From: Flaccisagitta enflata
Taxonomy: Eukaryota
Reading direction: 5' to 3'
Assembly (NCBI GenBank): GCA_965153355.1
Contig: OZ231126.1
Coordinates: forward strand, 27,280,001-27,344,000
DNA length: 64,000 nucleotides
Below the pieces are notes generated by a model. That model ran no database searches, had not been told where the DNA came from, and was given only the letters and a program-made list of their open reading frames with translations. The translations under genes were made by a program, and so were the position numbers. Each line of letters begins with the position of its first letter. The first letter of the stretch is position 1. Positions 4,606-59,284 of the stretch are shown here, one piece after another.

Positions 4606-20103
<15,498 letters not shown>

Positions 20104-21546: not shown

Positions 21547-22598
21547 TCAGCAACATCCTCCACCCTGTTTCCCGATGGGCGTGGATGTAGGGTCGATTTT
21601 GACACTTGGCTTGGGGTTGGAATCCGGGGCGGGTCCCATGCGGTTCTTGATTTCCGCCGCCATCGTCATAAATGCCTGTTAAAGTGACAAGGGGAAGATA
21701 GGAAAAAATGAGGAAGGTTCATTGATGTAACTTTACCTGAAACCACCCAAAGTTCCCTCACTAGCTCATAATGTAATTCGCCTTAAACCCCCCCCCATTT
21801 CAGCAAGTATTGGCCAAGGTAAATCAGCCAACCCCCCCCCTCACATCCCTTACTCGTCGGCGTAAATCAGCCTACCTGTTCCACGTTGGTTGCGTTCTTT
21901 GCAGAGGTTTCCAGGAAAGGAATGTTCAGTTGGTCCGCGAATTCTTTAGCCGTCGTGTAGTCAACAACCTATACGACAAAGCTACTAATCATCAACTCAT
22001 TTCTTAATAACTCTTTAGAAATCACTTTCAAGACCGCTTTTAATTTCGTAGGTGGGATAGAAACTAGTATTTTAACCACTTGTATTTGAACTATAAAACA
22101 GTACCGAAAGTGCTAGAAAAATCTTACCAGCCTACATCACTAATTCTAACAGTCGACAACACAGAGAACAGAAACGACGTCAACAACAAGCCGCAGAAAC
22201 AAGCGTCTGACCTTCTTCGTTGTTAAATCGCATTTGTTTCCAACCAAAAGCTTGTTGACGTTTTCGCTGGCGTATCGATCGATTTCCTGGAGCCATTGCT
22301 TGACGTTGTTGAAGGATTCCTGGTCGGTGACGTCGTAGACGACGATGATGCCGTGGGCGCCGCGATAGTACGAGGATGTGATGGTGCGGAAGCGCTCCTG
22401 GCCCGCCGTGTCCCAGATCTGCAACTTTATCGTTTTCCCGTCCAGTTCAATGGTGCGGATTTTGAAGTCGACGCCGATGGTGGAGATGTAAGACTCCGTG
22501 TAAGTGTCGTCGGCGAACCGGAGCAGCAAACAGGATTTGCCCACCCCTGAGTCTCCGATCAACAGCAATTTGAAAAGGTAATCGTATTCGGGATTCAT
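21547..22598 (-). CDS. RAB1: Ras-related protein Rab1, 202 aa; exons 22598-22212, 21968-21876, 21675-21547
   Basis: [60 protein letters not shown]. Confidence 0.98.
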
Positions 22599-23213
22599 GG
22601 TTACGAAGGAGGAGGAGGAGGAAGAGACAAAATTTGTTGTGTCTTGCGTTGAAATGTAAAGATTTTGGGTTCGTTGTTTGACACTTGGTGTGTTTTTTTA
22701 TTTCACTCTCGTTTGTCCGGATTGAGAAAGGGAAAGGAAAAGAATGACAGAGCTTTTTAAAAGTGCGCGAGTCTTTTCCGTTTTTCTTACTTTTAAGTAT
22801 AAATGGGGAAAGTGTAAAGAGTTTTTGTCTTTATATCAGGCTATCGGGACGATATAAATCATGGAGGCCACGCGCATGGAATAACTGAGTAAGAAGGAAA
22901 GGAAGTGGGTCAAAATAAAAACACATTCGTGGTATTTCATCATTACGCGTAATGAAGGGAATAATAGAAAACATTGAGCAAGCGGAACTCAACCTAGAAA
23001 GGAGCAGGTTGCTGTCCAGTTTCTAAAGCGCTCAGCGCCATGAAAGAAGACCTTAAAAGGGGTGGGTTGAAAACGCGTTCATAAACGCGCTTTTCCTGTC
23101 TTCCCTGGCATTAGGTCATGCCCAAATACAAAACTACGAGCACGGACCGCAACGAAACCAATGACACGAACATTCCACCCGGGCCAAATGATGTAATTAA
23201 TTGATATGAAACT

Positions 23214-26200
23214 ACGAAATAAATTGAGTGCTACGTTGGCTAGACTATATGAATCAGCTGCAGAAAAGGAGGAGTGAGTTAAGGCTTCGAATTCTCGATA
23301 ATGAGAGAGAAGGGAAGGGAAAAGAAGGAAGGGGAACAGAGGAGGAGCATTGACGATTGATCTTCGAGTAGAAGCGGGAGGACAGATATCTGATACTATT
23401 CTTTCGCACGACGACAACGCCACGACGGTGAAATCTTGCAATGAAATTTCGATTTCATATCCAGATTTAAGAACAAAATGACTGTAAAAGTTGTCAACGG
23501 AAGATTTTTATCTCTTGCGGTAGGAAATAAAACCGGGTCGAAAGCGGTTTAATTACGCTTAAGGAATTTCAATTTCATGACAAGTTACTTAAAACTAAAA
23601 CTAGTTCGGGTGTTGTGAGGATGATCGGAATAAGCAGACAGCTAGATCTAGACCATGTATGGCACTTCATAATATTCGCTAGGCAAGGCAAAGCTGGCCA
23701 AATTATCAATGACAGTAATTTACAAAGGTAAACAAACACCAGTTCGAGCCATTGATCAAATATCCAAGCTTGGAACTACGAAATTACCAAGCCATTTCAG
23801 ATTTCTCGTTTTTAACGGATACCAAGCTCGAGGCGGCGACGCGCTTGCGTGGCGGCGCGTTGTTATTCACTTCATACCCATCTTCCTCTTCTTTGATCTT
23901 GACTTTCATTGGTACGGGTCTCGGAAACGGATGAATGACGAGGAATTCTCCCGGTCTTAATCTTCCTCGTGGGCCGACGTCGAATTTGTGAGGCTCCCCC
24001 GGTGGACGAGGGCGGAACTGTTGGGGGTCTTTGGGCTTGTGCTTGAACGCCGGCCGTACCTCGACGACGACGCCTTCGATCGGATGGAATTGCTGCAAAA
24101 GTGACTTCTCAGCAGCGTCGTAGTTGGCGAACGTCAAGAAAGCGAAACCGCGAGCCTATTTCATGGTCAATTTCATGGTGGAGAGGGAGGGGAAGAAGAA
24201 GCGAAGAGCGTGTTTCATGACTACAGATATACAAAAAGATTTGTAGAAAGATAGATGGGAAAGATAGGAAAGCAGGCAGAATAGCAGACAGGAAGACAGG
24301 CAGAATAGCAGATAGGAAGACAGGCAGAATAGCAGATAGGAAGACAGGCAGAAAGGATGACAGGAAGACTGAAAGACAAGCTGATAGGCAGACAGGTAGA
24401 AAGGCAGATAGGCAGATAGGGAGACAGGCAAAAGCAGATAGGAAGACAGGCAAAGCAGATAGGAATATAGGCAGAAAGGCAGATAGAAAGAGAGGCAGAA
24501 AGGAAGATAGGACGACAGGCAGAATGGCAGATAGGAAGACAGGCAGATAGGAAGACAAGCAGAGAGGCATATAGGAAGACAGGCAGAATGGCAAAATGAA
24601 AGACAGGAAAACAAAAAGAAGAAAACCAGAAGAAAGGGATATACATGGATATAGGAAGACGCGTGAAATGCAGATGGGAAGACCGTCATTTTGGGATATG
24701 GGAAAACCGACAAAAAGGCTGAGAGGATGTCCAACAGAAAGACAAGTGATAGAAAAAGGAGACAAGAAGGGAGAAAAGAATTATGCGTATTACTAACTAC
24801 TCAATGCAATTTAAAACTACGCTTTCTCCAAAGACCTGATAAAGCTGGACCTTCTCCACTAATCCGTATGAGGAAAAGTAATCAACGATGGTTGCCTCGG
24901 AGAGATGAAAGATGCCACTTATCTGAACCCTTCCCATGTCGTATCGATCGTCGTCAAGCGAAACTGGCAATCGTCTGAGAAGTATATCCACGCCGTTGAT
25001 AGTCAAAACCCGGCCGACCATGCACCTATCCACGGCATCGACGTCCTCGAAAACCACGTTACCGCCACCACCTTCCGTGAATCTCAGCTTCTCCACGGGG
25101 CCGAAGTTACAAAAGGCCGTCCATATGTCGTCGTCCTCCACTATCTCTTTCCCAGAGGAGGAGGATGAGGAAGAGGAAGAGGCGAACTCGAAATGAACCG
25201 TACGATATTCCTCGATGACGATCTCCTGGACCCAAGGATTGACAGGGTCGTCGTCGCCTTCTTCCTCACAATTGGCGTCAGTTTTATCGATCTTGTAGTC
25301 GTTTACGTCGTCATCTTCGACGTCATCGCAAATCGTAATTTCCTCCGAAAGCAAACGGGCGTTTTCCACGGCTTTGACAAAGACCACATCTCCATCCTGT
25401 TGATCCTCGAATCCCGATGGTGGGGGTGGGGACGCGTTATCATCGAAATCCTCGACCGAAATGCCAAGACCGGCGATATCGTCTTCATGCTCAATAGAAA
25501 CCTTGGGGCCGACGTCGTCGTCAATCTTTAACGGCTTCTTTTTGTCTTTCCTCCTCATTTTCCTGCTGAAGGAGTCGTCGAGACACGCGGAACGACTTCG
25601 CTGACGTCTCGGTCGGGCATTGGGATTGGAAGGGGATCCGGACTTGGGAGGGACATCGGGAACTTTCGTTTCGCGTGATTTTCTGACGAGGGAACCGTCG
25701 GCACCAGCGCGCAATCGCCTTCTATCCGATCCTAGCACGGTACGCCAAAACGGATTACGAATTTGCTTGATTTGTGAATAAAAACTTTTACATAATAGTT
25801 TCCAAAGAATGTTTTAAACTATCAAAATTATAATAAAACTTTTGAATGATCAAATTCACTAAGCTTTACAGAGCAGAATAAGTCAATTTACCCCAGGCAA
25901 CCTATTTTACCCAATAACCCCCTACTCCAAATTGACCCTGAAAAATCCTTATCAAAAAAAAATTTGAAGCTATATGATTGAATTGATTTATAGATCCACT
26001 ACATAATCTTACACTAAATATATCTTTTGTAAATTTTATCTATTGTAAATCTTAAATCTATTGTAAATTTTGTACAGAGAGTGAGGAAAGTGGTGACTGA
26101 TCAAAATGAAAAATCAATCGTAAAAAAATAAAATTTGCTCTTTTTTGGGTAAAAACCCTCAAAGTCGAATTTTTTTCTCAATAGATTCTTTGGGCTAATA

Positions 26201-26283
26201 CAAGAAGATTGACACTAAGATTGTCCTTTTACTATAAAAAATGGCAAACATATAGCTATTTAAAGTTCTGGGGATACCCAGGG
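23214..26283 (+). repeat. ~3.07 kb segmental duplication, copy 1 (direct repeat of 56199-59284)
   Basis: Colinear, near-identical sequence from acgaaataaattgag to gggatacccaggg, with scattered substitutions and small indels. Confidence 0.97.
23784..25731 (-). pseudogene. 5'-truncated copy of the two-RRM RNA-binding gene (exons 25731-24836, 24155-23784; start exon absent)
   Basis: The frames remain open (..FCNFGPVEKLRF..; YFSSYGLVEKVQLYQ|ARGFAFLTF, RNP1), but the duplication ends before the ATG exon seen only at 59983. Confidence 0.7.
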
Positions 26284-29200
26284 CAAAGATCTGCTCGAAT
26301 CTCAGCGCATGGACAAGAAGCACTGCGTGTTGGAGCAAGAGATTCTCGGCCACAAGTCCCAAGTGGACTCGACTCTGGCCAACGGGGCCCAATTGGTGGC
26401 CGACAAACATTTCGCTTCCGACGACATCAACGCCAAATGCGATGACTTGAAGGCCGAATGGAAAGCGCTGGGAGATGCCACGAAGGACAGGAGGAAACTC
26501 ATCGATCTCAATCTTAACGTCCATCAGTTCTTCCACGACGCCGCGGAAGTTGAAGGTTTTGGATGGAGTGGAACGGACAGATGAATGAATATATTGGATG
26601 AATGAATGATTAAAATAGATAAATGAAGGTATGAATGAAATTGCATGAACGAAATGGATAGACGAATCAATTGACTGAATGAAATGGATAATGAGTGTAT
26701 GGATGAAATGGATCGGAATGGCATGGCATGAATGAAATTGGATATATGAATATATTTATGCTTATATTTGCGCCGAAGCATGAATGATTGCTCGATATGA
26801 CGGTAAGGCTTTGAGGAATGTCACGAGAAAAAGAAGTAATGAAAACCACGACAAATTTATACAACAACCATTTCTAACTCGCAATTGATCCACTCACGCA
26901 CAGGATGGATGTTGGAGAAAAAGACTTCTTTGCAAGGGCAGACTGATTGTGGGAAAGATCGAATGGCGACCCAACAGCTCCTCAACAGACATGAGGCCTT
27001 CGAGTTGGACCGCATCACTTACGAGAAGATGGCCGAAGGCGTCATAGACACCGGCAAAAACCTCATCGAAAGAAAACCCGCCGAAAGCCACCTCATCGCC
27101 AAAAAACAGGTAACCTGAAAATTTGGGAAGAAAGAGGAGTATCTTGAATCTTTTGTTTTACAAAGGTAGTTTACACAAACTGAAACGAACAGACCGATAG
27201 AACAAGGCCAAGTAGGCCAATAAGTTGCGACGTGCGGATCGTCGAACGACCGACCGACCGACCGACCGGCGGACACAGCCAGTTGTAGAGGTGCTTTGTC
27301 GCACCTAAAAAAAAATCCTGAAAAAGTCTGAATGCCGACCCCCCCCCCAAAAAAAACAAACAAACAAGGAGTATGATTTATCTCCAGTAGTTGATCTCAA
27401 CTTACTTGATCCTTCTAATAGGGCGAGTTGAAGAGCGCGTCGGAAAGCCTCGCTAAACTGTCATCCACGCGCGGCAAGATGCTGCGACAATACATGCAGT
27501 ATCACGAGTATATGGCTGAGACGACGGACTTTCTCGACTGGATCGCAGAGAAACATCAGTTGGCCTCGTCACAAGATATCGGACAGGTATAGGCAATTAT
27601 GGGAGGATGATCAACTCTGTTCATTGAATTTGCAAATTTCAATCGTTTATATTAGTAATTTGATTTATATGCCCGATATATTGAATATATCGTAAATAGG
27701 TCAGAAATTTACGATCTCATTTGTAGCTTCCATATGTTAAGTAAAACAAAATCCCTCACTATAATCAAACTGAAACAGATGGTAGAAGGCTTTATGAAAC
27801 CTCACTGACTCGTAAAGAGTCGTACCACTCCACTTGATTTGAAAAATATTCTTCCTGATTCTAACATACCAAGTTACACTTTTGATAAGTTGCATTTTGT
27901 TTGGCTTCAGGATTACGAACACTGCAAGTCTCTGTTCACGAAATTCGCCGATTTAAACAATTTAGTGGAAACCACTGGCCCAGCCAGATACGACAAGGCC
28001 GAGTCTCTGGCCAAGGAGATCGTCGAGGGCAATCCCAACATGAAACCGGAAGTGGACCAACGCCGAAGCGAGTTGACGGACAAATGGAACGGCCTCTTGG
28101 AGCAGTTGACAGACCGAGAAGCCGCTCTCAAAGCCGCTTTGGAAATCCACGCGTTCAACCGGGACGTGGACGACGCCGTCACGCGCATTCAAGAGAAGGA
28201 AACGGCCATGTCGACGGATCTGGGCAAAGACGTGTACACGGTGCAGATGCTACAACGAAAGCACGAAGGATACGAGAACGAGTTGGTGGCCTTGGAAGCG
28301 CAGTTGCAAATCGTCGTCGATGACGCGGAAAACCTCAAAGCGGCTTATCCGGGGGAGAATGCCAAACATATCGGGGAACAACAGGTGTGGGCGCGCGTGT
28401 TGGCGCGCATGTTTGCGCGTATGTGCGTGCATGACTGCGTGATTTTATGCTGGTTTGCACGCTTGAGTTTGTCTAATGTTGCGATCTTAGTCCTCATTAA
28501 TGAAGGCAATTTTTAGTTTCATTTTCCCCTTTTCTTCAGGCTTACGTCGTCCAACGATGGGAAATACTTCAAGAAAAAGTAACAACTCGAAGATCCGAGC
28601 TGATTATGGCCTACGACCTCCAACGATTACTCGCTGAGTGCAAAGTAAGTTTTTCAATTATAGATTCGCAAAACTAGCGTCACATGCATGTCCAATTTGA
28701 TTTTTTGAAAACTATGCCAGGGAGACCCAGTTTCAGCCCAGTTCACACGCGAAGGCTTATCTTAGTTCTTACCGAGACCTACAACAATCTCTTTAACCAA
28801 AAGTCTGGATACGCTGTTTTATGTTGTTACGGTTACGTAAGAATGCAGATGAATGACTGACTGCACCGGGACCACAAGCCACTGGCTTTCCTTTTCCGGT
28901 TGACTTGAACTTGAACTTAACAATTAATCTCTTGAACAATGAATCTTTTCCTGGAATCGGTTGTATTCTAAGACTATGCAAGGCTTGAGAGTTAGGGAGA
29001 CCCAGTTTCAACCCAGTTTACGCGTAAAGACTTATCTTGCCGAGAATAACAACAATGAATCTTTTCCTAAACTCGACTAATAGGACTTGACAAATTGGAT
29101 GTTCGAGACTGAGAAGCAGATGATGGTTGACATCGTGGCCAACGACGTTGACAGCGCCGTTCAAATCCACGAGACTCACACCAACGTCTGGCCAGAGATC

Positions 29201-41148: not shown

Positions 41149-44100
41149 TTATCGTGGCTCAATCGTTATTTTCCGGTCCCAGCTGGCGGAAGCGAAGCTC
41201 TCTCTTGTTAAACAATTATTAATTTGGTGGCGGGTTATGCGGGGTGCATTACTATCATGCGTAAGCGGCGGTCTGATCGGCTTCGGTTTGGACCCGACAA
41301 AGTCCGAGGGTTTATAGATTCCCAGTTTGATCCCGAATTCCCGCTTCTCCTTTCGCATATGCTGGGGGAAAAATCGAACTTTCGGTTTGGTTGAGATTTC
41401 GACCTTTTGATCTTCTTTGTTCTCCGCGATTGGAGTATTGTCGGGTGGAACGCTTGCTGTAACCGCAGTGTTCTTCTCTCGCGTCGCTTCAGATCTTTTG
41501 ATGTCATCCGTGGTGAAGGATCCGATGCCGATGGGCTGACTAGGAGCGGTGAAAGGGTTTCTCGGCACGCTGAGAGATTGATGACTGACGTTAGAATCTG
41601 AACTTTCCTCGCCGTTGGACTGCTTGTCCTTCCACTCCAAATGTAGCTCTAAAAGGGTCTTTGAAATGTCGTTGTTGTTGCCATCACTGACCTCTTCAGT
41701 GGTTACGGTCGGTGTTTCTGCTTCATCTTCGTCGCTTTCGCTATCGCTCTCGCTGTCGGTGAAAGTTATTTTGGTAACGCTCGATTTGTTTTCATTGTAA
41801 TTGAGTGGAGACGAATTGTGATCGTCAGACGTAGAAGCGGAGATGAAGTAAGCGCCCGCATATCTTAAGGGTGAAGTGGCACTCTTGGAACTTTGCGGGT
41901 CATCGGCGAACAAGGTCGTTCCATAAGGCACGACGTGACGATTCTTTCGGCGCCTCTCATCATCCGGTCTCACATACAAATGGTTGACGGCGTTGGATGA
42001 AGGAATCTCGTAAGGATGTTGTTTCATGTTGGGTGCGGGTGGGATGACCAGGTTGGTAATTCTACTCCTCGCTTTCTGTTTTCCGAAGCTAGCGTCTATT
42101 TTTGCTTTGTTCGGCATGATTTTCGCTTGGCTCTGCCTTCTCTTGATCACCTCATATTTTTTCTCCAACTTGGTTATATCCGTGCTTGTCCTTTCTGCCA
42201 TAGCCATTCCTCCTTCCGACGACACGCCGGGTGGGCATTGTCCAGGGGAAGCGTCGCTGTGGGATCCAAAAACGGCTGGACCTATGCCTTCAATGTCCAA
42301 TGAATTTCGACTGGCTCTCCCAGGATCTATTGCTCGCGCGATACCGGCCATGTTGTCGTCAGTGGGTTCGTTGTCTGAGTGTTCTCTCGATGTTTTTCTG
42401 TTTTTAAAAGCCGCTTGCTCATTCAAAGCTATTGGCGAAATGTTGTAAGTATATTGTTCTCTCAGTTGGGTGAGCTGAGGGAAAGGGAAAGGAGCGAAGG
42501 AATAGACCATCCCCAGCAAACTATCAACGTCGATCATGTTGCTTTTCTGGTAGACGATGTCTTGCAACAGTTTGCCCATTTCCGTGTAGAAATCGTCGGC
42601 GGAATCGGTGTACCTGAGAAGCTTAGTTTGAAGCACATCCCATAGAGCCAGCGCCGTGCGTATGATAATTTCCGAACCTTCCATCATGATCGCGTCCCAT
42701 ATTCTCAAAACCGCGTGGAGCGGCAAACACGTGGCAAATAGCGTCAAGAACCATTGCATGGTAAAGACGTTGGTGAGCGGAGGTTCGTATCCACCAGATG
42801 TCTGATCTTGCTGCGCCTTTAATTGCAAATGCTTGAGATGCTTGGATAGCTTTGGGAGATGCTGGTTCATCAAGTCTCTGAAAACCGCCATGTCCACGGA
42901 CAAAGCGCGCAAATTGTTAGAAAAATACGATGGTGGCAGAACTTTATCGATGAGAAATATCATGATCTTCAATGCCTCTTCCTCTCTGCGTCCCACCACA
43001 TCGAGAATCAAGGCCGCGATGATGTTAAAACCCTGACAGTAGCCAATCTCTTTGTTCCATCTGGCGTAGCCGAGTAGGACACGTTTCAAAACGGCTCTTT
43101 CCTGATCATTATCGGTCCCCGAAAAAGTGCTACATCCTGTTCTGTGGAGGTCTTTGACTATCTGAATTCCAAGCTCATGATCATCTGGATTGCTGCGATC
43201 ATTGAACGCCGAGCGCTTGAGTTCCTTCCAATCCACTTTCATTTCACGGAAGTAGTTGTCCGCCAGGTTCAGCCAGATCTGAGGTGATTTTACGCGGTGA
43301 ATGGAAATTGTTGTGAAATATGGCTATCAGACAGTCAACACTATTTTTGGCCTGCTTATCTAACGACAGCATTATCTTGCTTTTTGAATTGAAAAATACG
43401 AGTGAATATTACCTTTCTGCGGATGAGGTTTGGGACTCCCCCAGACATTCGATTTGCCACCCGTATGGCGTCGCACCACTGTGAAAAGTTTTCCTCTCCA
43501 GGCGGTGGCTCTAGGTCGAATCTCATTTTAGCATCCACCTAGGACGAGAAATATGGCACTGAAGTAGATGATTTAATTTGAATCGGTAACGCGACGTAGA
43601 ACGTCAACGTATATTTTGAGATGAAGATGAAATATTTTACCTCTCTCTTGAGCGATTTGGCCTGCAAGCAAGCGGTGACAACGCTGCAGTTTGATTGAAT
43701 GATGGCTCTTTTCTTCGCTCTCGTCTTCAACTGCCGCAAAAGCCTCGAGTTGGTTTGCTGCACGCGGTGTTGCAGCTCTTTGATGATAGACTTGAGTTCC
43801 GTCTTGTCCTTGGCCAGAAGCTCCTTTTCCGAGTATTTCTTGACACTAATGGCGGCGAAAGCGGATGTTACACTTCCAGTTGTGCCGTCAAAGTCGCTCT
43901 CGATCGATGATTGCCATCTGCCGTCGTAGATGTCGCTCAAAAGTTCTTCCACTACCGAATCGGTTCTTGATGTCTTTTGGTTCACCACCGAGGAACAGAC
44001 GGACGACGACCGTTCTGGCGCCATGCCCCAGCTGCTATCGGATCTGTTAATCCTGGCGCCCCGTATCAGCTCTTCAAAACTGTTCACGGATCGCGGGGAA

Positions 44101-44183: not shown

Positions 44184-45432
44184 CTGATGACGTATGAAGG
44201 TTTAAAAAATATTCAGAAGAATGGATTAAAACTAGTCATCCAAGGATCGCACATGGTCAGCGGTACCCAATGCCCCGCTGGGAGTGATTTAGTGAAAGTT
44301 GTGTGAACAGGGCTGTGTTCTTAAAGGGCCGATGTCCTTTAGAACGGGGGTGAATTTCTATGTTATTATTCATTGCAGATAGCCTCAGATCATTTAAATT
44401 GGGCTATATTGCCTTCAGACTAGGTAATGAAAATTTTTCAATTGAAATAGAAAACTGGGATTTAAAGGAAAACAAAAAGCTGAGGCTCTCTCGTTTTTAT
44501 CTGTGCTAATTGGCCTTTATTGTATCTATTGATATAAACTGAAGTAATTTGTATAGTTCAAAAAGGTAAGCTGTTATCATTTGATACAGGTTTGTTTTGA
44601 TTAAGATTTTAGCATTCTATAAAAATGATCATGAATTGTTGTGGATGCAATGGGGGTTATTTTTGTCCCCGACGAACAGTTTTCGTCGGTGACTATGAAG
44701 TAGCATTGATGTGTAGTCTGTCTGTCGTCTGTCGTCTGTTTAAAACCTTTACATATCTTTGGAACCAGACTTCAGAATTTTATGAAACTTTGCTGGTGTT
44801 GTTTACAGGTTCGGACGGATTTGTAAATGCTATATGTCACATTCCAACTTACCCCCCCCTACAGCCCAAACGAATCATCATAGAGACCTGAAATTTGGCA
44901 TGGACACTCATCTTAGGTCTAATCGTGGGGCCATCGAGGCGATTTTTGATAACTTGACCCAAAGCCGCGTTATGGGGCAGGGGTGGGGTACCCCAGGGGG
45001 GGCAAAAATGTCAAAAAATTTTTTTTCGATTTTTTTCATTTTTTCGACTGAATTACTTAATTTAGTGTCTTAGGCACCAGGAAAACTCATTATAACCTAA
45101 CTAACTCATTGTGATCATGATTTATTCACTCTAGAAGATGAAGTGTCAAAACCGAGACTTACGGAGAATTTTGCTTTTTCACCAATTTCGCTTTTTGCCA
45201 ATCTGACTATCTTGTATAGGCCATCCGCCGCCTAAAATTCCTACTTAGAAGTTCAAGCTTTTTCTTCAAACACAAACGTATTCATATCTATAGACAACAA
45301 GGGAAAAGATGTTACAATGATTTAAGGCCATTGGCGGAAACACACATAGTGATATGATTTAAAACCGCATGCCTGCATTGAGAATGGAATTGAAAGTAAG
45401 AGAATGATGCTTAGCGTCCTTCACATTGGCAG

Positions 45433-47960
45433 TTAATCGATTGCGTGAACTGCCCTGCATGGACTAGGGCAGACACATATTTCTCCCTCGACAACCGCAT
45501 CCGATCTCCAAAAAAAGCCATTGGCCGCTAGCCAAGATTTCGAGTTTGGGCGCCAACCACTAGACAGAAAGGCGCGAGTGGGGCAGTCATGCGCATGAAC
45601 TTTCGCCTTGGAGTAGTTCGGAGTGGCGTATTCGACTCCACATCCAGAGCCACATTTGAATCTGAAAGTAAAAATGTCAGGGTTACTCTGGAAAATGAAG
45701 AAAAGGGCTCCATGTCACAAGTATTTCAGGCATTTTGCAGGCATTTTGCTTACTTCTGATCCTTCTTGAGTTTTTTGGAAAAAGCTGGGGGATTGTGCCG
45801 AAATTCTGACGATTTCGAAGCTTCCGCGTCAGCGTAGAGAATCTCAAAGATTTTTGCGATGGATGTCTTTTTGGCAGGAGCCGCCGAAGCCATGAAGCGA
45901 TTGAGGTTAGCGGCGCTGACAACGGGAGTTTGGTTGTGCTTTTCGAGTAAGTCTCTCAGCGGTTTGGTCAGCTGGCTGTCTTCCGACCCATCCATGGCGA
46001 GTGACACACCTGTTGCGCGGAATGCCTTACGCTGCACAGCCGGAGTGACTGCGCCAGCAGCTTTGGCTACCAGTTGGCACACTTCTGTGAGCGAAGGGTT
46101 GGGGACGCTATCTTCTAGGTTTCCATCTCGATGACGCGCAATGATGTTGGCGATTAACCATTCTTCCGTTTCCTTCAATAAAGATAGATTCATTTCCTCA
46201 TTTTAGTCGCGTGCTAGCGACTCTGCAACTCACTATGTCTGTCGTTTGGTCAACATTTGCTTTAAGCGTTTTGGGGCGTCTTTTGCATCACTGCTCCTGC
46301 CCAAATGTTTGAGTTAGCATTTTTCATCACTGCCCCTGCCCACCCGCATGCGACGTTGGTAGCCGTGTATCCATGTATACATTGAGAAAAAATGTTTGAA
46401 GTCCTTATTCAATTATTCGCTCACCGTTGCATAAGCTTTCTGAAAGGCTGCGTTTATGAATGAATCACAAGGTTGCACGTAGCCGGATGTTCCAGGAGGC
46501 GTAAGAATGGGAAGGCGACCAGATTCGGCAATGATACGCCGAATCACCGGGTCTAAATGGCCTGGTGCTGCGTCAAACTGTGCATAGGATAAATTTGATG
46601 AAAAGTAATGAAATGATTGGAGGAGCACTTATGCTCTACTCGACAAAAATGAATAGTTTTAAAAATTTCATAGGCATAATTGTCCTAAGCGACTTGAGAA
46701 ATGATATCAATTACTTGGAGAATTGTTGGTTCTTCCACGCGAAACAAAGTGAGAAGAAGAAAAGCCATGGTGACCTTCCCTCCGCACCATGCCTTCATTC
46801 CAGGAGGCACCTTCACCACTGTCACTCCCTCTAAGACGGTGAACTGGACATCCAATTTCTTCACAACCACACATTGTTCCTTCGAATTCCAATCGCGATC
46901 TTCTACTTCAATGGTGTGGATGATGCTGCCAACCGGAAGTCCTTTCTTCGTCACGAGAAAAACCATGAGCTCCGACCCATCGGCATTACCAAACAAGATG
47001 CCAGTAAACGCCTCCTTTGGATTGGCGATCTTTTTGACGATTGGATCTTTGACGGATGCAAACTCGAGAGTGCGTTGATTCAAATCTTGATCACTCGAGT
47101 TCAAACGGATCTCATCAAAGTTGTACACGCGAGACAGAGGAATGTCATATTGAGCGCGCATCCAGCGGATTTGTTGAAGCATTTCCGCCGAGCTTTTGGC
47201 CAAAACCTTCAGGAAAGCAATCATCAATATTATGATATTTCTGAAAAGAAGTGAAACAAAAGGTTGATTTTACGTATTTGCTCAATTTTTTACCTTCAAG
47301 TTCTTGTGAATTTGGCGAGAAGCGCGTTTATCGACGATTTTGTATTTCTCCATGAAACGAGCGACTCTTTTACGAAGAACCTCACGAGTGTCTACCCACT
47401 GACGCTTTTGAGCTTCAAGAGCGATGTTGAACCCAATTTCCGCGCAAATCTGATAGACGAATTCTAAAAGATGGCGAATCTTGACGACGCATCCCATCGC
47501 TCGGCGCTCTTGAAACTTGACGAGGAGTTTTTCTTCGATGGGAAGCCAAAATTCATCGGTATCCCGGCCAGCACCCTCAGCGCGAAAAGGCAACGAACGT
47601 TTCGCTTTGCTGATGGTGTCTTTATTCCTAAACACTCTGGTTTGAGTATTTGGGGTCAAGTGGAAGCGTATTTCGACGTGCCTTTGTTTTTCGGGAGTTG
47701 AGAGGGTGGAACTGTTCCAAAACTCGATGGCGTCGCGTTTCTTTTTCATCGAGATACTCCTTCTTGGAATGAATGTTTTTCTTCCTCGAACGTGGACAAG
47801 TGCGTGATGACGAGCAACGTTGGATTTGTAGATGGTAGAAAAGCGGCAACCAATGCGCTTACACCGATAAACCTCTCGCTTGAGGTGATAAATTTGTCGG
47901 TGCAGCCACAAGCTATCGACGGATTTGTAGTGTCTGCCGCAAATGTTACACGATAATCCA

Positions 47961-48047
<87 letters not shown>

Positions 48048-48909
48048 CACAGACAGATTATTTTCAGTTGACTTGAACCACAGATAAACGAGTGCACCCG
48101 ATTCCGCCCGAATATTCTCTTTCAATCAATTTCCTTTGACTCGAAATATCAATTGTTGTAATGTTCTTTACCTTTACGCTTTTCTCTCTTTTTTCTTTTC
48201 CGCTGATCCGATGGTTGCGCTTGTGACGGTTGCGCCTGTGATGGTCCGTCGGGAAGTGAGTGTCTGTCAAAAGTCGACGCTTCACCGAGAGCCGACGCTT
48301 CACCGAGAGTCGACGCTTCACCGAGAGTCGACGCTTCACCGAGAGTCGACGCTTCACCGAGAGTCGACGCTTCACCGAGAGTCGACGCTTCACCGAGAGT
48401 CGACGCTTCACCGAGAGTCGACGCTTCACCAAGAGTCGACGCTTCACCAAGAGTCGACGTTTCACCGAGAGTCGACGTTTCACCGAGAGTCGACGTTTCA
48501 CCAAGAGTCGACGTTTCACCAAGAGTCGACGATTCAACGAGAGCCGGCAGTGCCTTGGGCTTTGGAACCGATTTTGCGCCTGAGATAAATATGCATGGCT
48601 TTTTACTGAAGAGAGTAGAATGAGACAACATCCCGGGCCCTGAAAAAGAAATGATTAGTAATCTACAAACTACAATTAGCAATGTGTGAAACTACAACTA
48701 CCATGTGTGTTTTTTTTATGATTTTTTAAATGCGTTCTATCGGTGCAGCGTTTCCCACAGATGTTGCAGCGCATATCCACTTTCCCCTTTGATGTTGCTT
48801 TCTTTGCGCGCGCTGCCAACAAGCCGGCATTTTTTGCTATGGGTTTCATAGGTTTGTCCGGTTCCCAATTGTCATCATCATCGTCGTCTCTCCTCTTGCG
48901 CTTGACCAT
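45433..48909 (-). CDS. Spliced pogo-like transposase, ~878 aa: C2H2 x3 - HTH - CENP-B-type HTH - DDE_1 (DD35D) - C2HC-like tail; exons 48909-48702, 48639-48172, 47961-47294, 47206-46715, 46577-46425, 46172-45754, 45661-45433
   Basis: All six introns are GT-AG and phase-consistent (2637 nt, no internal stop). Motifs: CNICGK..HLKNH..H; CNICGRHY..H...H; GAGR..IEEKLL..FQERRAMG..V..RFMEKY; VYNFDE; GNADG; KAWC; LQFDAAPGH-PPGTSGYVQPCD (35 residues between Asps); KAFRATGVS..DGSED. An unspliced stop also exists at 45750. Confidence 0.85.
48273..48545. repeat. 18-bp coding minisatellite (gtcgacgcttcaccgaga)n, ~15 units, encoding (STLGEA/T)n in the transposase
   Basis: Directly visible; the unit length preserves frame within exon 2. 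Confidence 0.95.
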
Positions 48910-49019
48910 GTCTACAAACTACTGTCTACAAACTATTGTCTACAAACTATTGTCTACAATCTACGAAAACTGGAAGCCTGGAAAGAAAAAAAAATTGAAC
49001 ACTTAGGCATTGGCGTAGT

Positions 49020-49544
49020 TCAGGATGAAGTTAAGGGGTGAACTTTAGGCATGTTTGCCCCCAAAACAAGAGAAGAAACACCATTTTCGTCCTTAAAAGG
49101 ACGAATAAATGGTTTCAAATTATCAGGACAATTCATAACGCCAACCCCAGGAAAAGAGTTCATTTTTTTTCGAGCGAAATGGGCAAGGAGGAACTTTGCA
49201 TCAGACCTATTCAAATCGCAGAAACAGATTCTCATGCCGATCTCCTGAGAATGTGTTACAATGGACAAGCATGACTGGTTTCTCCATTCTCCCACGCTTT
49301 CATAGACATTGGCTTGCAGTTTTGAATTTGATCGTAGGAAACGCCATACCACTCTTCTTGCACTCCTATCCACATGGCCAACTACATTTTCGTTGAAAAT
49401 TACGGCAATTGATTTTCCAATCGTGTAGGCTTCATCGATCTGAAGAGTTACTTCTTTGCCAAGGATAGTTGACGCTTCAACGTCATGTCGGAGAATGATC
49501 TTCGTGAACAAAACAGGCGACCAATCGTCGACCTCTTCCGCCAT
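49020..49544 (-). CDS. 174-aa HIRAN-like protein carried inside the transposon
   Basis: Intact ORF with the ATG two bases after a branch point/acceptor (ctaac..ttcaccttcag|tcATGG). LGKEVTLQIDEAYTIGKSIAVIFNENVVGHVDRSARRVVWRFL resembles the HIRAN pattern GxxxxLxxE...AIxV...xGyvp. Domain call is by eye. Confidence 0.6.
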   Translation of the reverse strand: MAEEVDDWSPVLFTKIILRHDVEASTILGKEVTLQIDEAYTIGKSIAVIFNENVVGHVDRSARRVVWRFLRSNSKLQANVYESVGEWRNQSCLSIVTHSQEIGMRICFCDLNRSDAKFLLAHFARKKMNSFPGVGVMNCPDNLKPFIRPFKDENGVSSLVLGANMPKVHPLTSS

Positions 49545-52500
49545 GACTGAAGGTGAATTAAGGTTAGGTGGTTTTCATGAATTATATGTTCACAGCTCCC
49601 CGATTCATTTTATAATTTTTTTCTGTTTGCATGCCAACGTTACCTGAAAGAGACTTTGCATTGGGTATTTACGTTGAGATAACAAATAATAGATCGCCTT
49701 TAACACGTGCCCTGAAATGAAGGATAGCTTTCATAGGATTAGTAAATGTCCATGAGGCCCTGAGGCCTGTCGGTCGTCATCGTAACTGCTCGGCAACTGC
49801 GAAGAGAATTACGTTGACGTAATTGAACTTTTCTTTCCCTGACCAGCCTGTTACCATGGATACGATGGAAAAACTTTTTCACCTAACCGGATTTAATTCG
49901 AGTGAAATCCCATGTTCCTAACTCGCTCTTGCGTTTGGGTGAGACATAAGATCCCTTTTTTTTTTCTATCTGGTTAATCATTTGGCGAGATGTTGGATAC
50001 TATATCTAATAAATAGAAACCTTAAACGGTATTCATTTAGGTAATAGGTTTAACATACTGTTTCTAGAAGCAGCTGATACGTTCTGGACTAGCTATCCTT
50101 TTCGTCTCCCAATTTTCAAGCTTCGAAGATCGCCGAAGACCTGAAAAAAATAGCAAGATGACACATCATGTTTGATTAGACATAATATTGCATTCAAACG
50201 AAGTAAATATTAAAATAATGCTTTATTCTGGTGCCTAAGACACTAAATTAAGTAATTCAGTCGAAAAAATGAAAAAAATCGAAAAAAAATTTTTTGACAT
50301 TTTTGCCCCCCAGGGGTACCCCCACCCCTGCCCCATAACGCGGCTTTGGGGCAACTTATCAAAAATCGCCTCGATAGCCCCACGATTTGGCACAAGATGG
50401 CTGTCCATGCCAAATTTCAGGTCTCTATGATGATTCGTTTGGGCTGTAGGGGGGGGTAAGTTGGAATGTGACATATAGCATTTACAAATCCGTCCGAACC
50501 TGTATAGGTCAATAGGAGCTTGTGTACCAATTTTCAAAAAAATTCATTAACTTTTACTACCCTTTGCCTATTATTTTTGTAGTAATATTTAACTGGGACT
50601 TATGTGGTTTACATAGGTAGAGGGTAGTAAAAGTTAATGAATTTTTTTAAAAGTTGGTATACAAGTAGAGGGTAGTAAATAAATAACCCCTGCAAAATTC
50701 GAATTAAATCTGAAGTCTGGTTTATGAGATATTAGCTTATTTATGTAGTTATATATTACTATGACTTAGACAGTTTACATAGGCAAAGGGTAGCAAAGTT
50801 ATGTGAATTCTTTTTTAATTTGGTTAAGATATTAGTTGAACTGCCCCTGCAAAATTCGAATCAAATCTGAAGTCTGGTTTTCCTTTTCTTTTCGTTTTCG
50901 TTTTCTCTCTCTCTGTTTTTATGTTTTTCTCTTCCCCGTTCTTTTTATTCTCTTCCCCGTTCTTTTCGTTCTCTTCCCCGTGTTTTTCCCCTTCCGCTCG
51001 TGTTCCCTCTCTCGTTCTCTGTCTTTTTGTTTTCCTGCTCGGTTGGGCGCTCGTGTTTTTTTCCCCTGTATCGTCTTTCCGGTTCTTTTCCTTTTTCTCT
51101 TGGCCCTGTTTTACGCCTTGCGTTTTTTAGGGGGTTTATCTCATGTTTGGATTATCATGGATTGATAATTATTATTGAATTTCGTTGTCGTTTTGCGTAT
51201 CGCGTTTTTATTGTGCCATTATCGTTATCGTTTTGCGTATTGCGTTCTTATCCCGTGTTAACGTGTCATCTTCACGTTTATATTGTTTCTAATTATTTAT
51301 TTTAGGAGTAATGTTCTTTCTGTCGTTGCTATTTTTTTTAATCTTTGATGTGTTTCTGGTCACGTTCCCATGTCTGGAAACACCACAAGGCCCCCAAAAC
51401 CCCCTTCCCCCCTTGTTCCTCTTTAACTAGGTAAATGCTCAACGCCGGCTCTCTCGTGTCTGCTGGCATTATGGTGGAATTGACTTTCGTGCGATGTTCA
51501 AGTCAATTGACAATTTGGCGGCGGCCCTTGTCCTCTCACTTATTCCCATACCTCAACATCAAGAAGCCTCATCCACTTGCGAGTGATTACGCTCCCGGAC
51601 AGCGACGTGGTTGGGGTAGTTACATATTTGTTGAGGGGGGCGGGAGATTTTCAAGGGAGAAAGAGAGAGAGGCGCGCGTTTAATTGCCCTTCATTGAGTT
51701 CCCTCCCCGCCTGTCTTGTTGGGTGGTTCCATTGGATGGGTACCCTTTCAACCCTGGTATGGATGGCACCTGGTGGGTATGTTTCGGGCCTCCTTGGTCA
51801 TTAGTCGTTGGTCATATCCATTGGGTTGGTCCACTAAGGGTGGGTTCCCTTCTTTTCCATTCTCTGCCCTAGTGGTGGCGCTTCAAAGCCCCAAGGCGCC
51901 ATTTAAGCTGCATATATCCATCGGCGGCAACGTTGGTAGGAAACCAAAGCTGGAACCGCTGCCTAGGGTTGTGGTGCCCCAATTGCGGGAATTGGATGCT
52001 TACCCTGTAGACGGTGGGTAGAGGGTCTTAATAAGGGCAGAAGGAGCGTATTTTTAACTTTAGTTGTTTGAATTTTGCCATTTTGTATTAGCTGTAGTTT
52101 TGTCGTCGATTTTGTCCTTTGGGTAGCATGGTCGGGTAAGGGGACGGGAAGGGGGTGTGTGTTTATTGAGCAAGCTGCAAAGCAGTAGCACCCTTCGTCC
52201 CCAGGGGGGGAATGTGCGGGTGGTGTATGCTGGCTCGTTTGTGTGTCCCCATCCTTATCCGATCCCCCCCCCTTTTTTTTTCACACATTGAAATTTTTGT
52301 TCTGGTATAGAAAGATGCACTAGATTTTGGCCTTAGGATCGATTATACCCCATAGGCTAGTGTGAAAAATGTGTCTTTTGTTGACTTTAGCAATGCCATT
52401 TTTTTGTCACATTGCCCTTTTGTGTCGCTTCCATAGCTGTACGGAGTTGCTTTAGATTTTATTCTCTGTCGCTCCATCCTGAAAATGTGCGTTTTTTTTT

Positions 52501-56198: not shown

Positions 56199-56200
<2 letters not shown>

Positions 56201-59200
56201 GAAATAAATTGAGTGCTACGTTGGCTAGACTATATGAATCAGCTGCAGAAAAGGAGGAGTGAGTTAAGGCTTCGAATTTTCGATAATGAGAGAGAAGGGA
56301 AGGGAAAAGAAGGAAGGGGAACAGGGGAGGAGCATTGACGGGAGGAGCATTGACGATTGATCTTCGAGTAGAAGCGGGAGGACAGATATCTGATACTTTT
56401 CTTTCGCACGACGACAACGCCACGACGGTGAAATCTTGCAATGAAATTTCGATTTCATATCCAGATTTAAGAACAAAATGACTGTAAAAGTTGTCAACGG
56501 AAGATTTTTATCTCTTGCGGTAGGAAATAAAACCGGGTCGAAAGCGGTTTAATTACGCTTAGGGAATTTCAATTTCATGACAAGTTACTTAAAACTAAAA
56601 CTAGTTCGGGTGTTGTGAGGAGGATCGGAATAAGCAGACAGCTAGATCTAGACCATGTATGGCACTTCATAATATTCGCTAGGCATGGCAAAGCTGGCCA
56701 AATTATCAATGACAGTAATTTACAAAGGTAAACAAACACCAGTTCGAGCCATTGATCAAATATCCAAGCTTGGAACTACGAAGTTACCAAGCCATTTCAG
56801 ATTTCTCGTTTTTAACGGATACCAAGCTCGAGGCGGCGACGCGCTTGCGTGGCGGCGCGTTGTTATTCACTTCATACCCATCTTCCTCTTCTTTGATCTT
56901 GACTTTCATTGGTACGGGTCTCGGAAACGGATGAATGACAAGGAATTCTCCCGGTTTTAATCTTCCTCGTGGGCCGACGTCGAATTTGTGAGGCTCCCCC
57001 GGCGGACGAGGGCGGAACTGTTGGGGGTCTTTGGGCTTGTGCTTGAACGCCGGCCGTACCTCGACGACGACGCCTTCGATCGGATGGAATTGCTGCAAAA
57101 GTGACTTCTCAGCGGCGTCGTAGTTGGCGAACGTCAAGAAAGCGAAACCGCGAGCCTATTTCATGGTCAATTTCATGGTGGAGAGGGAGGGGAAGAAGAA
57201 GCGAAGAGCGTGTTTCATGACTACAGATATACAAAAAGATTTGTAGAAAGATAGATGGGAAAGATAGGAAAGCAGGCAGAATAGCAGATAGGAAGACAGG
57301 CAGAATAGCAGATAGGAAGACAGGCAGAAAGGAAGACAGGAAGACTGACAGAAAAGCTGATAGGCAGACAGGTAGAAAGGCAGATAGGCAGATAGGGAGA
57401 CAGGCAAAAGCAGATAGGAAGACAGGCAAAGCAGATAGGAATATAGGCAGAAAGGCAGATAGAAAGAGAGGCAGAAAGGAAGATAGGACGACAGGCAGAA
57501 TGGCAGATAGGAAGACAGGCAGATAGGAAGACAAGCAGATAGGCATATAGGAAGACAGGCAGAATGGCAAAATGAAAGACAGGAAAACAAAAAGAAGAAA
57601 ACCAGTAGAAAGGGGTATACATGGATATAGAGAGACACGTGAAATGCAGATAGGAAGACCGTCATGGAGGGAGATGGGAAAACCGACAAAAAGGCTGAGA
57701 GGATGTCCAACAGAAAGACAAGTGATAGAAAAAGGAGACTATAAGGGAGAAGCGCGTATAAGGGAGAAGTGCGTATTACTGATTATTCAATGCAATTCAA
57801 AACTACGCTTTCTCCAAAGACCTGATAAAGCTGGACCTTCTCCACTAATCCGTATGAGGAAAAGTAATCAACGATGGTTGCCTCGGAGAGATGAAAGATG
57901 CCACTTATTTGAACCCTTCCCGCGTCGTATCGTTCGTCGTCAAGCGAAACTGGCAATCGTCTGAGAAGTATATCCACGCCGTTGATGGTCAGAACCCGGC
58001 CAACCATGCATCGATCCACGGCATCGACTTCCTCGAAAACCACGTTGCCGCCACCACCTTCCGTGAATCTCAGCTTCTCCACGGGGCCGAAGTTACAAAA
58101 GGCCGTCCATATGTCGTCGTCCTCCACCATCTCTTGCCCACAGGAGGAGGATGAGGAAGAAGAAGAGGCGAACTCGAAATGAACCGTACGATATTCCTCG
58201 ATGACGATCTCCTGGACCCAAGGATTGACGGGGTCGTCGTCGCCTTCTTCCTCACAATTGGCGTCAGTTTTATCGATCTTGTTGTCGTTTAACTCGTCAT
58301 CTTCGACGTCATCGCAAATCATAATTTCCTCCGAAAGCAAACGGGCGTTTTCCACGGCTTTGACAAAGACCACATCTCCATCCTGTTGATCCTCGAATCC
58401 CGATGGTGGGGGTGGGAACGCGTCGTCGTCGAAATCCTCGACCGAAATGCCAAGACCGGCGATATCGTCTTCATGCTCAATAGAAACCTTGGGGCCGACG
58501 CCGTCGTCAATCTTTAACGGCTTCTTTTTGTCTTTCCTCCTCATTTTCCTGCTGAAGGAGTCGTCGAGACACGCGGAACGACTTCGCTGACGTCTCGGTC
58601 GGGCATTGGGATTGGAAGGGGATCCGGACTTGGGAGGGACATCGGGAACTTTCATTTCGCGTGATTTTCTGACGAGGGCACCGTCGGCACAGGCGCGCAA
58701 TCGCCTTCTATCCGATCCTAGCACGGTACGCCAAAACGGATTACGAATTTGGTTGATTTGTGAATAAAAACTTTTACATAATAGTTTCCAAAGAATGTTT
58801 TGAACTATCAAAATTATAATAAAACTTTTGAATGATCAAATTCACTAAGCTTTACAGAGCAGAATAAGTCAGTTTACCCTAGGCAACCTATTTTACCCAA
58901 TAACCCCCTACTCCAAATTGACCCTGAAAAATCCTTATCAAAAAAAAATTTGAGGCTATATGATTGAATTGATTTATAGATCCACTACATAATCTTACAC
59001 TAAATATATCTTTTGTAAATTTTATCTATTGTAAATCTTAAATCTATTGTAAATTTTGTACAGAGAGTGAGGAAAGTGGTGACTGATCAAAATGAAAAAT
59101 CAATCGTAAAAAAATAAAATTTGCTTTTTTTTGGGTAAAAACCCTCAAAGTCATTTTTATTTTGTTCGAATTTTTTTCTCAATAGATTCTTTGGGCTAAT

Positions 59201-59284
59201 ACAAGAAGATTGACACTAAGATTGTCCTTTTACTATAAAAAATGGCAAACATATAGCTATTTAAAGTTCTGGGGATACCCAGGG
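56199..59284 (+). repeat. ~3.07 kb segmental duplication, copy 2
   Basis: Direct repeat of 23214-26283. Confidence 0.97.

Follow-up and report, generated by a model that had tools for sequence, protein, structure and literature searches.

A pogo-like transposon of Flaccisagitta enflata with a putative HIRAN-fold gene and a strong splice-acceptor motif ahead of its transposase

How might a transposon express two proteins from adjacent genes that are only 110 nt apart? This question is raised by an element in a 64,000-nucleotide stretch of the Flaccisagitta enflata genome (assembly GCA_965153355.1, contig OZ231126.1, positions 27,280,001 to 27,344,000), which we refer to as the window and number from its first letter. 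The element is a transposon of 5,697 bp (44806-50502) with inverted ends of 288 bp and TA on both flanks. Its two genes lie on the minus strand. The upstream gene, ORF1 (49020..49544, with a TGA stop at 49022-49020), encodes a 174-residue accessory protein with a predicted HIRAN fold, and the downstream gene encodes a predicted transposase that begins at an ATG at 48909. A first-pass annotation of this locus had proposed that a single leader exon serves both genes and that the choice between two acceptors sets the ratio of their products. The established part is the anatomy of the element together with one unusually strong acceptor motif between the two genes. Every splicing event and transcription start described below, and the role of the HIRAN protein, we infer from the DNA.

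A rare acceptor motif between the two genes

All three splice motifs of the first-pass annotation sit at its minus-strand positions when the window is read directly. The donor, CAG/GTAACG, has its last exon base at 49644 and its GT at 49643-49642. Acceptor 1, which ends in ttcaccttcAG (AG at 49548-49547, exon start at 49546), lies 2 nt before the ORF1 ATG (49544) and has a CTAAC motif 17 nt upstream (49567-49563). Acceptor 2 (48978..48994) consists of a 15-pyrimidine tract followed by AG, T9CTTTCCAG, with the AG at 48979-48978 and the exon start at 48977. It is placed 41 nt past the ORF1 stop and 68 nt ahead of the transposase ATG. We scored the motifs with a generic weight matrix for splice sites, which has approximate frequencies and was not trained on Flaccisagitta enflata, and counted sites of equal or better score over both strands of the window (128 kb).

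Of the three motifs, acceptor 2 alone exceeds chance. Its score of 11.01 is the highest of any acceptor and is reached at no other site on either strand of the window. A count that does not depend on the matrix finds 13 Y12-AG sites in the 128 kb, acceptor 2 included (0.10 per kb per strand), and approximately 0.011 such sites would be expected in the 110-nt spacer between ORF1 and the transposase. Another of the 13 is the predicted acceptor of transposase exon 3 (47963). The donor scores 7.86, a value equalled or bettered at 78 sites (0.61 per kb per strand), and the 670 nt that separate the inverted repeat from the ORF1 ATG would by chance hold approximately 0.4 sites of this grade. Acceptor 1 scores 0.52, with 599 sites equal or better (4.7 per kb) and approximately 0.14 expected in 30 nt.

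We tentatively favour a reading in which a leader is spliced in cis to acceptor 2, with ORF1 lying inside the intron. Transcription would start between the 5' inverted repeat and 49644, and a non-coding leader, most likely ending at the 49643 donor, would be joined to the acceptor at 48978 to form the transposase mRNA. Removal of this 666-nt intron from the 5' untranslated region (5' UTR) would take out the whole HIRAN open reading frame (ORF) and would place the transposase ATG first, in good context. The HIRAN protein would be made from RNAs that keep ORF1, whether by use of the weak acceptor at 49547, by intron retention, or from a TATA/CCAAT promoter internal to the intron. The narrower proposal, in which a switch between the two acceptors (49644>49546 versus 49644>48977) on one pre-mRNA sets the accessory-to-transposase ratio, appears unlikely to us. 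Within the leader-splicing reading, the rest of the probability goes to intron retention and to a promoter nested in the intron.

The placing of ORF1 in a transposase leader intron has on its side a rare acceptor between the ORFs, a best donor at 49643, three closed frames and no intervening polyadenylation (poly(A)) signal. Among the donors between 50215 and 48980 that at 49643 is the best (7.86), the rest scoring 6.2, 6.0, 5.9, 5.1 and 4.4. The sole donor-like site within ORF1, at 49349, was considered as a partner for acceptor 2 and deemed unlikely; it is absent at the matching position of a related metagenome locus (L001, described below), where the alignment reads CG/GTTTGG. Stops are present in all three frames from 48977 to the ATG at 48909. 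These stops rule out an ORF1-transposase fusion via acceptor 2, and because all three frames are closed the sequence after acceptor 2 would be 5' UTR. The ATGs of ORF1 and the transposase both have G at -3 and +4 (GACATGG for the transposase), and in the leader ATG at 49661 both of these positions are C. Splicing appears to be the rule in this element, since its transposase gene contains five predicted GT-AG introns (62-252 nt) and all 15 aligned sequences share one of its donor positions. None of 12,162,974 RNA reads, approximately 6% of one RNA run from the same study, matched 48640-50510 at 90% likeness.

A motif scan finds no AATAAA or ATTAAA from the ORF1 stop until 47626, and the next suitable signal is an AATAAA at 45121..45126 on the minus strand, a candidate poly(A) signal after the transposase stop and one of three AATAAA motifs on that strand of the element. 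Because there is no such signal before 47626, transcripts of ORF1 probably continue into the transposase gene. The same arrangement, in which two ORFs on one strand are separated by 110 nt that lack a poly(A) signal, would also suit an unspliced bicistronic mRNA. ORF1 and the transposase would then be translated through leaky scanning or by reinitiation, and no use would be made of the splice-like motifs. We regard this as the least likely of the explanations considered. The many internal ATGs over the 525 nt of ORF1 would make scanning to 48909 inefficient, and the acceptor 2 motif would be left without explanation.

Several observations weigh against the full leader-splicing model. Neither the donor nor acceptor 1 is rarer than chance by the weight matrix, and the scores themselves come from approximate frequencies rather than from training on the host species. 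The 97-nt leader intron proposed between them (49547..49643, minus strand) falls within the size range of the 62-252 nt introns of the element, but it is defined by motifs of which neither is above chance. Inside it, 70 nt ahead of the ORF1 ATG, lies a TATAAA (49609..49614), the sole TATAAA on the minus strand of the element. A CCAAT (49660..49664, minus strand) is located approximately 50 nt further upstream and overlaps the upstream ATG at 49661-49659. The spacing of the two motifs fits a classical promoter, from which transcripts would start past the donor, and ORF1 may thus have its own transcription start. The leader would also be burdened with upstream ATGs: 14 are present between 50215 and 49644, and after splicing to acceptor 1 the ATG at 49661 would open a 38-codon frame that overlaps the start of ORF1. 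The pyrimidine tract of acceptor 2 also fits the consensus of a TCT-type initiator. Four tandem 14-nt units (TAGTTTGTAGAC-type, 48909..48964, minus strand) adjoin the transposase ATG and could be promoter elements; a fifth copy is at 48661-48672. Finally, L001 has no transposase start within 290 nt past its ORF1 homologue, so the link between a pyrimidine tract and a transposase exon is known from a single element.

These signals are the basis of a different explanation, possible although doubtful in our view, in which each gene is a transcription unit of its own and no splicing takes place at acceptor 2. ORF1 would be transcribed from the CCAAT/TATAAA pair (49664-49609). The transposase would be driven from the end of ORF1 and the spacer, with the pyrimidine tract serving as a TCT-like initiator and the four 14-nt repeats as sites bound by factors or by the transposase, a proposal to which we give the same doubtful standing. 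The position of the only TATAAA of the strand, the CCAAT above it, and the chance-level scores of the donor and acceptor 1 are all as this explanation would have them. Five of the nine window matches to the 14-nt motif, including all three exact ones, lie within 48661-48963, and the relative of the motif after the ORF1 homologue in L001 suggests a conserved cis-element. Against independent units, comparable Y15-AG tracts otherwise occur at likely acceptors such as that of exon 3; the repeats adjoin the ATG and would leave a 5' UTR of 50 nt or less if they were upstream promoter elements; and ORF1 is not followed by a poly(A) signal. The annotation had held that there is almost no room for a separate transposase promoter. 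That argument is weak, since promoters can overlap upstream coding sequence.

Acceptor 2 might instead receive a spliced leader in trans. One polycistronic transcript would then be resolved, like the operons of trans-splicing animals, by trans-splicing at acceptor 2 and perhaps at acceptor 1, an explanation we hold to be quite unlikely. A strong acceptor that follows one stop by 41 nt and precedes the next ATG by 68 nt, and a second acceptor 2 nt before the ORF1 ATG, are the geometries typical of trans-spliced genes. The host is a bilaterian, and because its TBC1D30 is diverged from named proteins it might belong to a trans-splicing lineage. Against this, an Rfam scan of the window returned no matches, spliced-leader RNA included, and no AG acceptor lies shortly before the ATG of the Rab1 gene in the window. 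There is also no poly(A) signal between ORF1 and the transposase, and nothing in our analysis indicates that the host trans-splices.

A HIRAN-fold protein encoded within the element

The accessory protein is a member of a family of small proteins. A HMMER search of 1.84 billion representatives returned 34 proteins at E<=0.001. Small relatives of 47-221 amino acids (aa) account for 31 of them, most on contigs of approximately 1 kb. Three longer matches, P0008 (2287 aa), P0033 (954 aa) and P0034 (371 aa), were dropped as relatives, their scores being sums over short repeats. An alignment of ORF1 with 20 relatives has a start methionine and a C-terminal KDENG motif in common, and because these features are shared the family is read as a stand-alone small protein. 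No form fused to the transposase, and no long fused form of ORF1, was found among the relatives. The F/L/S-rich tails of the relatives were considered as a sign of a conserved pyrimidine tract and were not used, since they can be accounted for just as well by a conserved VSSL(L/I)F peptide.

The HIRAN assignment comes from structure prediction. ORF1 matches no Pfam family at E<=0.05, including the HIRAN model (PF08797), and Pfam HIRAN gives weak matches in 2 of 21 family members (best E 0.013). A family profile returned no matches among PDB sequences. The AlphaFold (AF2) model of ORF1 has a predicted local distance difference test score (pLDDT) of 87.6, and Foldseek returned 14 structures at E<=0.001; among the matches listed are HLTF HIRAN chains (E 5e-5 to 3e-4) and 3k2y. 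Superposition of the model on HLTF HIRAN with VIA-align gave a Z of 11.3 and a root-mean-square deviation of 3.2 Å over 110 of 117 residues, and the next unrelated fold scored a Z of 6.1. The HIRAN-like label first given to this ORF is thus supported at the level of the fold (Foldseek E 5e-5, VIA Z 11.3).

HIRAN domains of the HLTF type are binders of DNA ends that carry a free 3'-OH. By analogy with this activity, the likeliest role of the ORF1 protein would be the handling of ends made by excision or of the gapped donor site. A limited search of the open-access literature, without supplements, found no HIRAN protein linked to a eukaryotic DNA transposon.

The related locus L001 is the only other locus returned by a scan of metagenome contigs, and scans of viral contigs gave no further loci. 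Positions 1-275 of L001 resemble window positions 50418-50146, the inner 270 nt of the inverted repeat, at approximately 60% identity. This repeat-like stretch is followed by approximately 300 nt that cannot be aligned and then by an ORF1 homologue with 45% amino-acid identity. Because L001 pairs ORF1 with the same type of inverted repeat, we assign ORF1, on its sequence context, to the element and not to the host. Directly after the ORF1 homologue L001 carries a run of ten T residues, then AG and a GTAGATAATAG-type motif related to the 14-nt units, a likeness that counts in favour of splicing at acceptor 2.

A pogo-like transposase in an element with TA flanks

The boundaries of the element are sharp. 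The two arms of the terminal inverted repeat, at 44806..45093 (the 3' end in gene direction) and 50215..50502 (the 5' end), are 288 bp long and 94% complementary. At both ends similarity between the arms begins abruptly at TA followed by CAGGTTCGGACGG, so that with the TA included the repeat measures 290 nt (44804-45093 and 50215-50504). The TA at the left end (44804..44805) is a candidate target-site duplication with the TA at the right end (50503..50504), and the element itself begins with CAGG next to each TA. No further copy of the inverted repeat was found in the window beyond the two arms. An inverted motif of approximately 50 nt lies just outside the element (44753-44805 versus 50680-50732 and 50839-50879). 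The sequence just outside the ends (44753-44805 and 50519-50880) also holds a 53-nt hairpin (50519-50571 / 50613-50665) and a direct repeat of approximately 160 nt. Possibly the insertion took place in a further repeat, of foldback type or resembling a miniature inverted-repeat transposable element.

The transposase gene is predicted to have six exons on the minus strand, separated by five GT-AG introns of 62, 210, 87, 137 and 252 nt. The ORF list places a 77-aa ORF at the ATG at 48909, and the computed join of all six exons gives an open frame of 803 aa with no stops. Exon 1 (48702..48909) encodes the first C2H2 finger. Exon 2 (48172..48639) carries a basic KRKKREKRK stretch and a repeat in which an 18-nt unit recurs approximately 15 times (48272-48543), in frame as STLGE(A/T). 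Exon 2 could be a cassette exon because it is bounded by phase 1-1 introns, and the frame remains open over 647 codons when it is left out. Exon 3 (47294..47961), whose acceptor follows a (CT)n tract, encodes two C2H2 fingers and a CENP-B-like region. Exon 4 (46715..47206) contains the first candidate catalytic D (NFDE), and exon 5 (46425..46577) the second and third (FDAAPGH ... QPCD). Exon 6 (46172 to 45750, coding to 45753, stop at 45752-45750) is joined in frame.

We read the D residues of NFDE, FDAAPGH and QPCD as a predicted catalytic DD35D triad. In the computed spliced frame the spacing is 134 residues between the first and second D and 35 residues between the second and third. Three C2H2 fingers are indicated by weak Pfam matches (zf-C2H2 E 0.0013 in exon 3), and the CENP-B-like region in exon 3 is a weak match to CENP-B (1hlv_A, E 0.0057, query residues 91-180). 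Searches with the separate exon translations found no match to HTH_Tnp_Tc5, CENP-B_N or any Pfam helix-turn-helix (HTH) family, and none to Pfam DDE_1 (PF03184); DDE_1 also matched 0 of 15 aligned exon-4 sequences. In a protein-language-model search exon 4 groups with DDE_1 clusters in 21 of its 30 Atlas matches (score 0.95). An exon-4 alignment profile had no matches among PDB sequences. The exon-4 structure model has a pLDDT of 63.5 and no Foldseek match at E<=0.001, an uninformative result. The element as a whole fits the pogo superfamily because of its TA flanks, its inverted ends starting with CAGG and its DD35D spacing, and sequence evidence supports a pogo-like DDE/D transposase as the downstream gene. 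The transposase label of the first-pass annotation holds in this form, for a gene within an element with TA flanks and inverted ends.

Relatives of exon 4 bear on how the transposase mRNA would be spliced. There are 20 of them, 103-195 aa long and 52% to 98% identical, and no longer homologue of the exon-4 frame was found among 754 candidates. The residues Q-V at the end of exon 4 are invariant in 15 of 15 rows (the window sequence and 14 relatives), and similarity ends there. This fits a conserved GT donor that is read through in frame. Two acceptors follow exon 3, the stronger with its AG at 47242-41 (score 6.35) and the weaker at 47208-07 (score 3.46). The stronger shifts the frame and leads to a stop after 31 codons, whereas the weaker keeps the frame. 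The alignment of exon-4 relatives supports the acceptor at 47208. Use of the decoy at 47242 could add a third product to the element, a truncated zinc-finger and DNA-binding protein lacking the catalytic domain; such an isoform might act as an inhibitor.

Intron 5 of the transposase contains a short dispersed repeat (46268-46367) that has weaker copies at 4978-5072 and 13205-13270. One ORF1 relative, P0007, is an internally deleted copy whose tail carries the WAGAVM... reading of this repeat. Because the in-frame reading also ends P0007, the repeat is probably common in related genomes.

The element could also be a silent relic, its motifs without present function or used only on host read-through, an explanation to which we give little credence. 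The arms, at 94% likeness, indicate that the insertion is not very recent, the stronger decoy acceptor at 47242 would break the transposase frame, and immediately downstream of the element comes a host exon that has an acceptor-like site. On the other side, ORF1 and all six transposase exons are open, relatives of exon 4 at 95-98% identity exist, and the ORF1 family is conserved over many diverged copies.

The host exon in question belongs to TBC1D30 (41149-44024, minus strand), a 724-codon exon whose ATG is probably at 44024, approximately 780 nt downstream of the element end and on the same strand. An acceptor-like site is present near 44186, upstream of this ATG, and the element possibly lies in a 5' intron of TBC1D30. 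The identity of the TBC1D30 protein to named proteins from molluscs, annelids and vertebrates is 50-53% across most of the query, with a few rows at 57-64% across approximately two thirds of it; to unnamed proteins from metagenomes and Logan the identity is 73-82%. Elsewhere in the window, translations read by eye indicate a Rab1-like exon (22146-22697, minus strand), with a pyrimidine-rich stretch ahead of its ATG and no nearby AG, and a spectrin-like exon (27809-28516, plus strand). A 3.1-kb segmental duplication (23214-26283 / 56199-59284) is 95.8% identical in the same orientation and contains near-identical ORFs of 338 and 350 aa.

Comparison with known systems

Textbooks present pogo and Tc1/mariner elements as transposons with a single gene, and tools in wide use for gene transfer derive from them. 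The element described here is a pogo-like transposon with a HIRAN-fold accessory gene and a multi-exon zinc-finger transposase, plausibly under control by splicing. A second gene of HIRAN fold, kept across diverged copies, implies that the element can supply its own handling of DNA ends during or after excision, and we offer this as a proposal. If ORF1 does lie in the leader intron, splicing would tie its expression to that of the transposase and provide a built-in dosage control. The full account, in which a pogo-type transposon took up a stand-alone HIRAN protein, encodes it within the 5'-UTR intron of a zinc-finger transposase and sets the ratio of the two by splice choice, is on our estimate unlikely.

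The ORF1 model resembles the HIRAN domains of HLTF and Rad5 in fold (PDB 6kcs, 4xzf, 4s0n, 5bnh and 6l8n). Those domains are the N-terminal part of SNF2/RING proteins, whereas ORF1 is a stand-alone protein of 174 aa with approximately 45 extra C-terminal residues. Identity is 13-16%, and Pfam HIRAN misses ORF1. As a second protein of DNA-binding type beside a transposase, kept across diverged copies, ORF1 also recalls the PIF/Harbinger elements, which are two-gene DNA transposons that encode a transposase plus a Myb-like protein. The two systems differ in transposase superfamily, accessory fold and gene arrangement.

Among pogo elements (IS630-Tc1-mariner), the closest likeness is to the Passer/Fot type with DD35D spacing, in the TA flanks, the inverted ends starting with CAGG and the 35 residues between the last two D residues (PMC7386202). 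That paper gives a range of 29-56 residues for this spacing and mentions that in some pogo elements the inverted repeats are very long and that there are "one or two ORFs". Possible further likenesses are the weak CENP-B-type match and the assignment of the nearest Atlas clusters to DDE_1. At 5,697 bp, however, the element is longer than the 1.2-5.2 kb given for pogo elements in PMC7386202. It also differs in the five introns of its transposase, in the absence of detectable Pfam DDE_1, HTH_Tnp_Tc5 and CENP-B_N on the exons, and in carrying a separate HIRAN-fold gene. PMC7386202 describes POGZ as having DD35D plus zinc fingers, the fingers being a later fusion. In contrast to POGZ, the C2H2 fingers of our element belong to the transposase of a mobile copy and not to a domesticated gene. 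The combination of zinc fingers and DD35D in a mobile copy bears on how POGZ acquired its fingers.

The expression logic has its nearest parallel in the Spm/En elements. The two systems belong to different superfamilies: our element has TA followed by CAGG in place of CACTA ends, and its ORFs and exons gave no Pfam match to a Transposase_21-type protein. In our element the transposase would be the product of the isoform that skips the other gene, the accessory protein is unrelated to TNPA, and the arrangement is known here from DNA alone. To our knowledge, splice-choice expression is known from Spm/En and retroviruses and has not been described in the Tc1/mariner-pogo group. Spm/En forms one transcription unit that is alternatively spliced (tnpA-tnpD), with ORFs located in an intron of tnpA, as set out in PMC1636069. 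Both proteins of that unit are needed for transposition (PMC1636069), and we suppose the same of our element. Should the leader-splicing reading hold, the two systems would share the essential feature that the ORFs of one product lie in an intron of the other, and that one promoter gives rise to two proteins.

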